The position numbers and the translations under genes are program-made. A stretch of 64,000 nt of DNA, from assembly GCF_057098645.1 (NCBI RefSeq), contig NZ_CM169472.1. One strand, 5' to 3'. Shown here in pieces: positions 39,338-43,757 of this stretch; positions within the stretch are counted from its first letter, which is position 1; every line of letters starts with the position of its first letter. Under the pieces are notes generated by a model. It worked only from the letters and a program-made list of their open reading frames with translations, did not search any database and was not told where the DNA came from.

Positions 39338-39565
39338 ATGTTGAAAATTGATGCTATAGCGTTTTTTGGCAGCAAAACAAAGCTTGCCAATGTCGCAGGA
39401 GTTAGGCTGGCAAGCGTTGCTGCATGGGGGGAACTGGTTCCTGAAGGTCGCGCGATGCGCCTGCAAGAGGCATCCGGCGGGGAACTTCAGTACGACCCCA
39501 AAGTTTATGACGAATATCGTAAGGCAAAGCGGGCGGGGCGGTTGAACAATGAAAATCACCACTGA
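39338..39565 (+). CDS. dicC: DicC-like Cro-type regulator
   Basis: 75-aa ORF MLKIDAIAFFGSKTKLANVAGVRLASVAAWGELVPEGRAMRLQEASGGELQYDP...; divergent from dicA. Confidence 0.85.
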   Translation: MLKIDAIAFFGSKTKLANVAGVRLASVAAWGELVPEGRAMRLQEASGGELQYDPKVYDEYRKAKRAGRLNNENHH

Positions 39566-39821
39566 ACAGGTTTGTGAGGCTCTGGATACCTGGGTATGCC
39601 GACCAGGAATGACACAGGATGCAAAATGGCATCTGAATCGATCGCAGTTTGGCATTCGAATCGATCATGATTTGGCATCCATCTCCGATCACAGTTTGGC
39701 ATCACAATCGATCACGATTTGGCATGCTTCCGATCATTGATTGGCATCCTGCCAGTCACTCCGGGAATTAACTCTTTTCACCACAGTCTCCATTGCCGTG
39801 TTTAAACCAGTGGAGACGTCA

Positions 39822-41387
39822 ATGTCCAGAAAGAGAAAATCCAGGAGCACTATGGAAACCTGTTTTAAGATCCTTCAGCTCAAGTTCGACAAGAAGCTGA
39901 CTAACCGTTGTATCGGACTGACGTTACACATCAGCGCCTCAACCGTTTTTGAGGTTCTTGCCCGCTTCAAAGCCTCTTCTCTGTCATGGCCATTACCTGC
40001 TGATATATCCCATGACACGCTGGAGAAACTCATTTTTCCGCCCAAAGACACCTTTGCATCAGAGCTTGTAATGCCTGACATGTTGTACTTCGATACGGAA
40101 ATGAGAAAACCAGGTGTGACGCGGCAACTGTTGTGGATGGAATACAAGGCACAGGCGGGTAACAAAGCGATGGGATACTCGCACTTCTGCCGTTGCTACC
40201 GGGAGTGGAAAAAAACGCGACGTCTCTCCATGCGCCAGGAGCATCGTGCCGGCGAAAAGCTTTTTATCGACTTCTGTGGTCCTACGGTTCCTGTTATTAA
40301 TCCGGACACCGGTGAGATACGCCGCGTGGCAATCTTCGTGGCCGTAATGGGGGCGTCCAACTATACCTACGTTGAAGCGTGCGAAGGTCAGGACATGATG
40401 TCATGGTTAAATGCCCACAGCCGTTGCCTGACCTTCCTGGGCGGCGTACCGAAGCTGCTCATCCCCGATAACCTCAGAAGCGCAGTGAAAAAGGCCGATC
40501 GATATGAGCCTGTCATCAACGACAGTTATCAGGCACTGGCTGAGCACTATGGCACGGTTATCATCCCGGCCCGACCACGCAAACCTAAAGATAAACCAAA
40601 AGCAGAAAACGGCGTCCTCATCGTTGAACGATGGCTTCTTGCCCGCATCCGTAATGAAACCTTCCACACGCTCAGGGCGCTGAATGCGCGCCTTAGGGAG
40701 TTACTGACAGACATGAATAACCGGCCAATGAAGGGGTACGGCAATCAAACCCGTGCAGAACGCTTCCGCATACTGGATGCGCCAGCACTCTCTCCGCTGC
40801 CTCTGGCACCTTATGAATACACGGAATACAAAGCTGTGAAGGTTGGCCCTGACTACCACGTTGAATATGCCCGTCACTGGTACTCCGTTCCACACGAACT
40901 GGTCGGTCAGCGTCTGTCACTGAAGGCGGGGCAGTCGGTGGTACAGCTCTGGCACAAGGGGCAGTGTGTGGCGCAACATCCGCGCAGCACACATGAATAT
41001 AAACACACAACCAATCCGCTTCACATGCCAGAGCGCCACCGGCAGCACGGGACATGGACACCGGAACGCCTGATCGAGCAGGGAAAACGTACGGGCCCGT
41101 CCACAGGCCGGGTGGTTGAATCCATGCTGAAGGCAAAACCCCATCCGGAACTGGCTTATCGTGCAGTTCTGGGGCTGCTGGCACTTCAGAAAAAATACGG
41201 CCCGGAACGGCTGGAAAAGGCCTGTTACGTTGCCCTGCACTATAACGCCCCTGACAGACGCTTTATCGACAATCTGCTGCGTCACCATCGGGAGAACCTG
41301 GAGCTTCCATTATCCCGCCAGGGCGAACAACATCCGGCATATGCTTCAGAGCATGAAAACCTGCGTGGTCCGGGCTACTACCACTGA
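39822..41387 (+). CDS. istA: IS21-family transposase IstA
   Basis: N-terminal HTH then DDE-type catalytic region; followed 16 bp later by istB; start at 39822 or 39852. Confidence 0.85.
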   Translation: MSRKRKSRSTMETCFKILQLKFDKKLTNRCIGLTLHISASTVFEVLARFKASSLSWPLPADISHDTLEKLIFPPKDTFASELVMPDMLYFDTEMRKPGVTRQLLWMEYKAQAGNKAMGYSHFCRCYREWKKTRRLSMRQEHRAGEKLFIDFCGPTVPVINPDTGEIRRVAIFVAVMGASNYTYVEACEGQDMMSWLNAHSRCLTFLGGVPKLLIPDNLRSAVKKADRYEPVINDSYQALAEHYGTVIIPARPRKPKDKPKAENGVLIVERWLLARIRNETFHTLRALNARLRELLTDMNNRPMKGYGNQTRAERFRILDAPALSPLPLAPYEYTEYKAVKVGPDYHVEYARHWYSVPHELVGQRLSLKAGQSVVQLWHKGQCVAQHPRSTHEYKHTTNPLHMPERHRQHGTWTPERLIEQGKRTGPSTGRVVESMLKAKPHPELAYRAVLGLLALQKKYGPERLEKACYVALHYNAPDRRFIDNLLRHHRENLELPLSRQGEQHPAYASEHENLRGPGYYH

Positions 41388-41403
41388 CAGAAGGAACAAC
41401 AGT

Positions 41404-42159
41404 ATGAGTGATAACCTGTTAAACAAACTGACCCAACTGAAACTCCCGGCGATGGCCGGGAGCCTGATACGGCAGCGGGAAACGCCTCAGACCTACGACG
41501 AACTGTCGTTCGAGGAAAGGCTGACGCTGCTGGTTGATGACGAGCTTCTGAGCAGGGAAAACAGCCGTGTGGCACGGTTGAGAAAAAATGCCGGCCTGAA
41601 ATACCAGGCAACACCGGAAGGGCTGCGCTATCCGGCCTCAAGAGGTCTGCGGGCTGAACAGATGAGAGAACTGCTGAACGGCCACTACATAACCCACAGG
41701 AAAAACCTGCTGATAACCGGTCCGACAGGATGTGGCAAGAGCTGGATAGCCAATGCGCTGGGCGAACAGGCATGTCGACAGAAACACAGCGTCCGGTACT
41801 GTAGAACCGGGCGATTACTGGAACAACTGGCTCAGGGACGTGTTGATGGCAGCTGGCTGAAATATCTGAAACAGTTGCAAAAAATACAGGTTCTAATCCT
41901 GGACGATCTGGGGCTGGAACAGTTAAGTAACGCCCAGTGTAATGACCTTCTGGAGCTCATAGAGGATCGTTACGGACAAAGCAGCACGATAGTGGTAAGC
42001 CAGTTCCCGGTAGATAAATGGCATGGTCTGATGGAGAACCCAACAACAGCAGATGCCATCCTGGACAGACTGGTACATAACTCACACCGAGTGGTCCTTC
42101 AGGGAGAGTCACTGAGGAAAAATCCCCCGGTAGTGGAAAGCAGCGAAAAAACGCGTTAA
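41404..42159 (+). CDS. istB: IS21-family ATP-binding helper IstB
   Basis: MSDNLLNKLTQLKLPAMAG...; Walker A GPTGCGKS, Walker B ILDDLG; the six-frame ORF runs further upstream but ATG 41404 matches the IstB N-terminus. Confidence 0.9.
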   Translation: MSDNLLNKLTQLKLPAMAGSLIRQRETPQTYDELSFEERLTLLVDDELLSRENSRVARLRKNAGLKYQATPEGLRYPASRGLRAEQMRELLNGHYITHRKNLLITGPTGCGKSWIANALGEQACRQKHSVRYCRTGRLLEQLAQGRVDGSWLKYLKQLQKIQVLILDDLGLEQLSNAQCNDLLELIEDRYGQSSTIVVSQFPVDKWHGLMENPTTADAILDRLVHNSHRVVLQGESLRKNPPVVESSEKTR

Positions 42160-42716
42160 AAAGCGGTAGAAAAAGTTAAGTTCCCGGTTGATCGAATGGA
42201 TGCGAATCGCTGATCGGACTTCGATGCCAATCCGTGATCGAATAGAGCGGAATACGCAACAGGAGCAGGCGACGATATTAATCACGGAAGCATTCTGGGC
42301 TCTGAAAGAACGCCCGAACATCGATGTTCAACGCGTCACGTTTAATGATGGCGAGGTTGATCAACGGGCGCTGGGCGTTAACCGGGTGAAGATATTCGAA
42401 CGCTGGAAAGCTATCGACACCAGAGATAAGCGTGACAAATTCACGGCGCTGATTCCGGCAATTATGGAGGCTATCCGGATCAGCGATTTCAGATTGTATT
42501 GTGAAATTACTGACGGAAAAAGCATTACGTACATGATCGCCGGGTTAAACAAAGAATATGGCGATGTGGTGGAGTCCGGGCTGCTTTTTGCGGATCCAGT
42601 TGTTGTGGAACGTGAGACTGACGAGCTTATAGAAAAAGCTATTGCTTTCAAGCACGCGTATCGTCAGCAATACCAATATTACTTTGCAGATAAACAAATG
42701 TCTGCCAGGGGTTCGT

Positions 42717-43757
42717 ATGAGTATCGATGCACTACGATGGGCTAAAAAGGTGAAAACCGGCAGTTCATCCAGTAAGTCAGTATTGACCTGGCTTGCTGAT
42801 ATGTGCGGTGCCGATTTGTGTGCATACCCGTCTGTATCTGCACTGGCAGAAGTAACGGAACTGAACAAAAAGACTGTGCAGGACAGCTTACGACACCTGA
42901 TGGAGATTGGGTTAATTGTTGATACCGGTGAGAGAAAAGGCAGAACAAAGCAAATTGTGGTGTACCGACTTATCGGTGTAGAAGAAAGTGTTGCCGAGCC
43001 TGAATACACCCAAAAACGGGAGTCTTTAAAGGTGGGTAAAATTGGTGCTGTTAATAAAAACAGTACCGAAAATGGTTATGTTTCAGCACAAAACAGACCC
43101 AAAAACAGAACTCTTAGCTGCATGGAAAATAACCAAAGACACCCAAATTTTCCATCAAAGACACCCAAAAACGGATCACGGAACCCAAAGGAACCCAAAG
43201 ATCTAAACCCCACACATAACGCACGCGAGAGTGCTCCGACCAGTGAGCAGGAAGTTTTGTCGTTACAGGCAGCCCCCCCTGTATTCCTGTATGGCCTGAG
43301 CGAACCCATCGGAAAATTCCCGATGAGCGATAGCTGGTATCCGTCACGGGATTTTCGACGACGGGCTGCGTTGTGGGGGATGGCTTTGCCGGAGACAGAA
43401 TTTACACCTGCTGAACTTGCCGCCTTCCGGGACTACTGGGCAGCGGAGGGGAAAGTGTTTACGCAGATTCAGTGGGAGCAGAAATTCGCCCGTCACGTAA
43501 ATCACGTCAGGGCGCAGGTTAAACCAGTCAGCAAAGGGGTAAACCATGCAGCAGCACCAGGTGGCACCGCATCACGGGCAGTTCAGGAAATTCGGGCAGC
43601 ACGTGAGCAGTGGGAACGTGAAAACGGATTTATCAGCGACGGAAACGGCCTGGAAGCTGTGGGAACTCATGGGGGAGGTTTATTCGAACCGCTGGACCCA
43701 GAAGAACGGGGCCGCACCATCGAAGCTCTGGATTGCACAGATTGGCGCGATGACTGA
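42717..43757 (+). CDS. replication initiation protein (O-like)
   Basis: Product from ATG 42717: MSIDALRWAKKVKTGSSSSKSVLTWLADMCG... (winged-helix-like N-domain); position upstream of the P-like gene. Confidence 0.65.
   Translation: MSIDALRWAKKVKTGSSSSKSVLTWLADMCGADLCAYPSVSALAEVTELNKKTVQDSLRHLMEIGLIVDTGERKGRTKQIVVYRLIGVEESVAEPEYTQKRESLKVGKIGAVNKNSTENGYVSAQNRPKNRTLSCMENNQRHPNFPSKTPKNGSRNPKEPKDLNPTHNARESAPTSEQEVLSLQAAPPVFLYGLSEPIGKFPMSDSWYPSRDFRRRAALWGMALPETEFTPAELAAFRDYWAAEGKVFTQIQWEQKFARHVNHVRAQVKPVSKGVNHAAAPGGTASRAVQEIRAAREQWERENGFISDGNGLEAVGTHGGGLFEPLDPEERGRTIEALDCTDWRDD

Follow-up and report, generated by a model that had tools for sequence, protein, structure and literature searches.

The stretch analysed here, 64,000 nucleotides from contig NZ_CM169472.1 of assembly GCF_057098645.1 (the window), carries a lambdoid prophage that adjoins potC/potD in the Escherichia coli chromosome. 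In this prophage a gene of the ydaT family is split by a complete insertion sequence (IS) of the IS21 family, an ISSso4-type element of 2639 bp with TG...CA ends (39620..42258, plus strand) that lies in the same orientation as the gene. To the left of the element stands a 5' fragment of the gene (39549..39619, plus strand), comprising codons 1-23 and two nucleotides of codon 24; to the right, a 3' fragment (42265..42745, plus strand) runs from the last base of codon 24 to the stop codon and has no start codon of its own. As found, the 5' reading frame extends into the element (39549-39740) and would encode 63 residues, 23 of them native and 40 encoded by the element. The six bases ACAGGA occur on both sides, as a left copy at 39614..39619 and a right copy at 42259..42264; genomes in which the site is empty have a single copy.

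The inserted element and its ends

The original prediction, made from the nucleotide sequence, described an istA/istB element of the IS21 family of about 2.64 kb, and this was borne out by protein model matches, by the TG...CA ends and by repeats spaced about 23 bp apart. The element begins with TGCAAAATGGCA and ends with GCGGAATACGCA, with 2639 bp between the two ACAGGA copies, and its terminal inverted repeats carry the 5'-TG and CA-3' bases (TGCAAAATGG...GGAATACGCA) that are also found in 14 other copies. The transposase gene istA (39852..41387, plus strand; 511 amino acids with the RefSeq start) matches NF033546 'IS21 family transposase' with 284.6 bits against a cut-off of 160. It is followed in the same direction by istB (41404..42159, plus strand), which encodes an AAA+ helper ATPase of 251 amino acids and matches NF038214 with 257.8 bits against a cut-off of 200. 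The two consecutive genes, both above the curated NCBIfam cut-offs, thus have the layout typical of the IS21 family, in which the gene for a DDE transposase precedes that for the helper ATPase. Their coordinates were taken over from the RefSeq annotation of identical copies (WP_045147483.1 for IstA and WP_001282653.1 for IstB); istA could also start at an in-frame ATG ten codons earlier (39822), which would give a protein of 521 amino acids.

A megablast search with the 2639 bp found the full-length element in 225 of 5426 complete E. coli genomes, where several copies, both chromosomal and plasmid-borne, are 100.0% identical across all 2639 bases. On identical copies RefSeq labels the first product 'istA: IS21 family transposase' and the second 'istB: IS21-like element ISSso4 family helper ATPase IstB'. 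The name ISSso4 is well established: it is listed in ISfinder, was first given in Shigella sonnei and is in use in the literature, for instance for one of eight S. sonnei elements in a 2026 preprint. The leftmost 39 nt of the element, sought in the representative genome collection to gather insertion sites from other species, had no exact match there. Poultry isolates account for many of the 100%-identical copies. One strain, GF60 (E. coli, chicken meat, Switzerland), has undergone a marked expansion of the element, with ISSso4 at 29 or more chromosomal places (NZ_CP172185.1) and copies on all four of its plasmids, pGF60-A to pGF60-D.

The two ends of the element carry different numbers of short repeated units. 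A repeat finder identified five well-conserved units of about 20 nt at the left end (39637-39748, with spacings of 23, 24, 23 and 22 bp) and two conserved units at the right end (42199-42216 and 42223-42240), which agrees with the five left and two right sub-repeats of the original prediction as far as conserved units are concerned. However, when the ends were laid out in register from their termini, each end proved to have one more, degenerate, terminal unit, and the count was refined to six left and three right. The left terminal inverted repeat region (39620..39757, plus strand) accordingly has six units, each 22-24 bp long and built around the core ..(T/A)TGGCAT.., spaced by 23, 23, 24, 23 and 22 bp, and the right one (42190..42258, minus strand) of three units of 22-24 bp, the terminal one degenerate. 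According to biochemical and cryo-EM work on IS21 and IS5376, the prototypes of the family, the ends contain several direct repeats, named L1/L2 and R1/R2, at a distance of 23 bp; every repeat is bound by one IstA subunit of a tetramer, and the terminal CA is the reactive end (PMC10122671). By analogy with these elements, the asymmetric sub-repeats are IS21-family transposase-binding sites, to which IstA would be expected to bind. The high number of units at the left end is identical in all copies, and it is therefore a property of ISSso4 rather than of the present insertion.

The 14 other copies of ISSso4 agree with this one in gene order, ends and length and differ only in where they are inserted. 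Like IS21 and IS5376, the element has istA followed by istB, TG...CA ends, direct repeats about 23 bp apart and short target duplications. It differs from these prototypes in its repeat number, with six at the left and three at the right end where the prototypes have two per end, and in its duplications, which are reported to be fixed at 5 bp in IS5376 (PMC10122671) but range from 4 to 7 bp among ISSso4 copies and are most often of 6 bp.

Target-site duplication and empty site

The direct repeats of ACAGGA that had been predicted to flank the element are present at both junctions. On the left, ...CCAGGAATGAC ACAGGA is followed by TGCAAAATGGCATC... (39614-39619/39620); on the right, ...GCGGAATACGCA is followed by ACAGGA GCAGGCG... 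(42258/42259-42264). The bases just outside the two copies differ (upstream C versus A, downstream T versus G), and the direct repeat is therefore exactly 6 bp long. The chance of two given 6-mers matching is 1/4096.

The 14 other copies of the element were fetched in two ways: six were ranked by the length of their match into the flank, and are hence biased towards window-like flanks, and eight (L010-L017) were ranked by element identity alone. Each is 2639 bp long and has the same end bases (TGCA...CGCA) with differing flanks. The flank-independent copies show unrelated flanks and duplications (CCCGG, TTTGGC, CCTGC, AGCGCA, GTCAAT, TTTATAG and CGCAGAC). Since the other copies share the ends of the element but not its flanks, ACAGGA is target DNA and not element; the original prediction had allowed that the repeats might prove to be part of the IS termini, and the comparison of the 14 copies speaks against this. 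Twelve of the 14 have duplications of their own (one of 4 bp, four of 5 bp, four of 6 bp and three of 7 bp), so that 6 bp is the commonest length once the window copy is counted (13 copies). In L001 and L011 the genes on the two sides are unrelated and no real duplication is present; they are presumably rearrangements, and the absence of matching flanks suggests recombination between copies. A preference of the element for ACAGG target sites was also considered and rejected, since the flank extensions of the top matches reflect the ranking bias and the eight flank-independent copies lack the motif.

Removal of 39620-42264 rejoins the two gene fragments into an in-frame open reading frame (ORF) of 552 nt, encoding a protein of 183 amino acids with the N-terminus MKITTEQVCEALDTWVCRPGMTQEQATILITEAFW. 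This reconstructed coding sequence has 0 mismatches to the annotated coding sequence of WP_000705622.1 ('toxin YdaT family protein', strain E2865), and the exact restoration of the reading frame on excision, as predicted, is thus matched base for base by an intact RefSeq gene. The rejoined site, taken as 600 bp from each side with one ACAGGA (1200 bp), is matched over its whole length at 100% identity by at least 25 complete E. coli genomes among those listed, including Shiga-toxin-producing strains of O145:H28, O26 and O103. It is contiguous (at least 80% covered) in 753 complete E. coli genomes, with the gene annotated 'toxin YdaT family protein'. The same prophage is found at the same chromosomal position by potC/potD in O145:H28 RM12761, RM13516 and strain C325, at 99.2-99.7% identity. 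The flanks were searched separately (left 9.6 kb, right 9.7 kb), and in these three genomes the left and right matches overlap by 6 bp; they therefore have a single ACAGGA and no element. Both the empty site that was expected in related strains and an uninterrupted homologue of the reconstructed joint are thus found in many genomes.

The occupied site, by contrast with the empty one, was present in none of the 5426 complete E. coli genomes (no record covering at least 80% of 39220-42660). An exact search of the representative genome collection for the 38-nt left junction found nothing, and four versions of the junction-spanning ORFs have no exact-protein record. Because the element, the duplication and the flanks are unchanged relative to their sources, and because the occupied site was not found, the insertion is recent and private to the strain lineage within these collections, in keeping with the recent and precisely mapped insertion originally proposed.

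The interrupted gene

The reconstructed protein gives a weak match to the Pfam family YdaT_toxin (PF06254; E=4.5e-5, 24.3 bits, residues 59-131), and nearly all homologues of the interrupted protein carry a precomputed PF06254 match. A search of 1.84 billion cluster representatives returned a small family of 62 matches, with full-length relatives down to about 30% identity. The link to solved structures needed a family profile, because a direct pairwise search gave no more than a marginal match (E=0.21) to 8bt1, a solved structure of YdaT. The profile, built from 11 homologues with the one Rac-like sequence left out, matched 8bt1 (E=2.3e-16) and 3c4r (E=2e-15) in the PDB over positions 2-111, the DNA-binding domain. 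An AlphaFold model computed from the family alignment has a mean predicted local distance difference test score (pLDDT) of 80.8, and in a Foldseek comparison with the PDB its top matches were again 8bt1 and 3c4r (probability 1.00, TM score about 0.6 on the target), all others being no better than E=0.5. The N-terminal POU-type helix-turn-helix domain is thus homologous to that of the solved YdaT structure by both profile and fold.

YdaT of prophage CP-933P, a DNA-binding protein with a POU domain, forms tetramers and takes the place of lambda CII (PMC9986795). In the Rac prophage YdaT switches on racR from a reverse promoter (PMC11879457), and its expression is toxic, leading to filamentation and cell death (PMC11879457, PMC5700377). 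Both proteins are known to bind an inverted repeat as tetramers and to activate a leftward promoter of the repressor-establishment type (PMC9986795, PMC11879457). The gene in the window resembles those of CP-933P (8bt1) and Rac in its position after a cro-like gene and before the replication genes, and its predicted product shares with theirs the homologous N-terminal POU-type domain. However, identity to these proteins is about 27%, the window protein is longer (183 amino acids) with extra predicted C-terminal helices, and the gene lies behind DicC/DicA rather than YdaS/RacR or PaaR2 and has no CP-933P-type operator nearby. We therefore consider that its sequence and predicted fold justify placing the interrupted gene in the YdaT family as a divergent member. 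The label 'ydaT-like' of the original prediction is accordingly upheld by Pfam, by the profile match to solved structures and by the fold match to CP-933P YdaT, which together make up the comparison of the reconstructed ORF with YdaT-family proteins that the prediction had suggested.

Just upstream of the ydaT start and within dicC there is a 12-nt inverted repeat (39378-39419, CAAAGCTTGCCA N18 TGGCAAGCGTTG, 92% complementary). It is possibly a candidate operator for the divergent YdaT, since it lies roughly where, by analogy, the CP-933P and Rac proteins bind in their own prophages.

In several other assemblies the N-terminal 60-95 residues of the family are fused to DnaC-like or DUF968-like (PF06147) tails (P0026, P0028, P0059, P0044 and P0049). 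Three of these proteins, P0026, P0028 and P0059, looked at first like fusions of IstB and YdaT and hence like other IS21 insertions. This was rejected, as in them a YdaT N-terminus is actually followed by the C-terminal part of a DnaC-like replication protein; judged from the sequences and the Pfam label PF01695, they would be deletions within prophages and not IS junctions. Because its N-terminus is fused elsewhere to unrelated C-termini, the ydaT-family gene is a frequent deletion breakpoint in cryptic prophages.

The prophage neighbourhood

The interrupted gene occupies the position expected of the family, starting at 39549 directly after the cro-like dicC (39338-39565) and preceding the replication genes. 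DicC, a Cro-like regulator of 75 amino acids encoded by the first gene of the rightward early operon (39338..39565, plus strand), matches NF007282 with 167.6 bits against a cut-off of 130, and the RefSeq name on the identical gene is 'Cro/CI family transcriptional regulator'. Divergently from it, on the minus strand, lies the gene for a dicA-type immunity repressor of 135 amino acids (38854..39261), which matches NF007257 'transcriptional repressor DicA' with 241.6 bits against a cut-off of 101. Downstream, the start of a replication gene whose product has a DnaT-like single-stranded DNA-binding domain (42717..43757, plus strand; partial match to NF002770 DnaT, E=1.2e-26) overlaps the end of ydaT, and the next gene is P-like ('replication protein P' in the homologous RefSeq locus). 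The placement of the split gene after a cro-like dicC and next to a replication module, as originally described, is confirmed by these matches. To the left of dicA lie ydfA, ydfB, ydfC, the DicF RNA and dicB, and because of these genes and the DicA and DicC model matches the immunity region is of the Qin (DicA/DicC) type.

Rfam matches on the minus strand identify a C4 antisense RNA (37300-37387), isrK (37412-37488) and DicF (37723-37774). In strain C325 the counterpart of this stretch has a gene for a Rha-family regulator between dicB and a dicB fragment, an arrangement that suggests the insertion of an antirepressor-type module into the dicB operon. Further to the right, a sok antitoxin RNA lies within 46497-46667, with hokD annotated in homologous loci. 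In the late region STnc100 (49365-49554, plus strand) directly adjoins the anti-GcvB small RNA AgvB (49555-49616, minus strand). A comparison of the window with itself also revealed tandem repeats at 61943-62694, with a period of 162 bp, about 4.6 copies and 90-96% identity.

The prophage has a second IS-associated lesion. An IS3-family element of 1314 bp, similar to IS629/IS1203, occupies 47120-48433, with ORFs at 48054-48380 and 47167-48057 on the minus strand and an ALIL frameshift pseudoknot at 47983-48099. Compared with the near-identical prophage of RM12761, 2.65 kb is missing, including a DUF968 gene, rusA and the gene for the Q antiterminator save its last 160 nt, and the IS3-family element stands in place of the missing DNA. 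IS629/IS1203 elements in prophages of Shiga-toxin-producing E. coli likewise inactivate prophage regulatory genes, and the copy at 47120-48433 is an example. They differ from the ydaT insertion in belonging to the IS3 family and using a programmed frameshift, and the lesion here is a 2.65-kb deletion rather than a simple insertion. This decaying prophage therefore has at least two lesions caused by insertion sequences, the ydaT insertion and the loss of the Q region, of which the latter is probably the more disabling.

Origin and consequences of the insertion

We consider it highly probable (about 95%) that the ydaT-family gene of this DicA/DicC lambdoid prophage was hit at codon 24 by a single, recent transposition of an active ISSso4 copy. 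As in published work on the IS21 family, IstA would bind the direct repeats spaced along each end and expose the terminal 3' CA; together with the IstB ATPase on the target DNA, it would then join the ends to target DNA cut in a staggered manner. The target duplication, which is of 6 bp here, would result from repair of the stagger.

Nothing speaks against the insertion itself, but several points limit parts of this interpretation. The insertion was read from the assembled sequence alone, so that an assembly error is formally conceivable, if very improbable. The name ISSso4 derives from the RefSeq IstB product name of identical copies, and 'ISSso4 or a very close isoform' would be the safe wording. 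Identity to an experimentally characterised YdaT is about 27%, so that DNA binding and CII-like activity would be properties presumed for the window protein from its relatives. A CP-933P-type YdaT box (TTGATTN6AATCAA) was not found near the gene, a result that is uninformative given the divergence of the protein; the motif has a single match in the window, which is below the chance expectation. Finally, a consensus scan of 38800-43000 showed no plus-strand terminator inside the element, so that a polar effect on the replication genes is no more than a possibility.

How else might the arrangement have arisen? Misplacement of a repeat copy by the assembler would account for the occupied site being seen in none of the 5426 complete genomes, for a junction that is not found in the representative collection and for a junction-spanning product that is not on record. 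However, a misplaced repeat would not give a perfect 6-bp target duplication at the exact ends of the element, nor leave flanks that rejoin exactly to a known allele, and 6 bp is also the commonest duplication length for ISSso4 copies; we regard such an artefact as having only a slight chance of being the explanation. The reverse order of events, in which the occupied state is ancestral and the 'empty' genomes arose by precise excision, is extremely improbable. The site is contiguous in 753 genomes and occupied in none, copies elsewhere match the element at 100% identity, and the duplication shows no decay. Precise excision of insertion sequences is rare. Equally hard to credit is that the ACAGGA copies are termini of the element, or a preferred target motif, and not a duplication made by the insertion. 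ACAGG-like flanks do occur on several of the best matches (ACAGG in L002, CAGGGC in L003 and GACAGGA in L004), but these matches were ranked by flank extension and hence selected for resemblance to the window, whereas L010-L017, chosen on the element alone, have flanks unrelated to ACAGGA. All 14 copies moreover end at the same TGCA...CGCA bases, and the empty site has exactly one ACAGGA.

A different question is whether the same event was selected, either because it knocked out a potentially toxic YdaT-family regulator or because it locked the prophage, to the advantage of the host. The toxicity of Rac YdaT on expression (PMC11879457, PMC5700377) would fit this, as would the second inactivating lesion, in the Q region of the same prophage, and the frequent truncation or fusion of homologues of the gene in other genomes. 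However, the insertion is known from the window only, and nothing suggests that it has recurred or spread; the kinship of the interrupted protein with Rac YdaT is distant, so that its toxicity would be an analogy; and DicA repression would be expected to keep the gene silent. Selection for the insertion therefore seems unlikely to us.

On the reading that we prefer, a single recent transposition, the consequences for the gene are straightforward. In the AlphaFold model the insertion point, after residue 23, falls between predicted helices 5-17 and 23-35. The gene is thus split inside its N-terminal DNA-binding domain, and therefore no functional YdaT-family protein would be expected. The original prediction had the insertion inactivating an early gene, and the split after residue 23, together with a 3' part devoid of a start codon, agrees with this. 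The YdaT-family protein would be the functional counterpart of lambda CII, an activator of repressor synthesis. The cost of the insertion to the host is probably nil, because DicA would keep the rightward early operon silent in the lysogen. With the element in place, the early promoter lies 2.6 kb further from the replication genes. The consensus scan (38800-43000) also gave no promoter that points outward from the right end of the element, and because it found neither a terminator nor such a promoter, neither polarity nor read-out can be argued from the sequence. The ydaT insertion and the separate loss of the Q region would together make it unlikely that the prophage completes a lytic cycle.

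The element has the same orientation as the DicA-repressed operon and lies 71 nt into its second gene. With this geometry, derepression of the prophage could drive read-through into istA/istB and so couple bursts of ISSso4 transposition to induction. Alternatively, a truncated YdaT could be made from an IS-borne start, the candidates being a TTG at 42188 or an ATG 12 nt downstream at 42200; lacking the first helix, such a protein might interfere with the YdaT-family proteins of sibling prophages. We mention these ideas as speculation and think either outcome quite improbable.

Significance

The element, its mechanism, the gene family and the erosion of prophages by insertion sequences are all already known, and the event is routine. 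What appears specific to the window, judging from the collections searched, is the insertion site, which was not found elsewhere in them. The finding has little import beyond annotation and strain typing. For annotation, the locus is a ydaT-family pseudogene interrupted by a mobile element, rather than two hypothetical ORFs. For typing, the junctions would be usable as a lineage-specific marker, given the absence of the occupied site from the 5426 complete E. coli genomes. For the biology of the strain, the insertion means that ISSso4 has been active in the lineage from which the window comes and, taken with the deletion of the Q region, it illustrates the stepwise decay of a lambdoid prophage.

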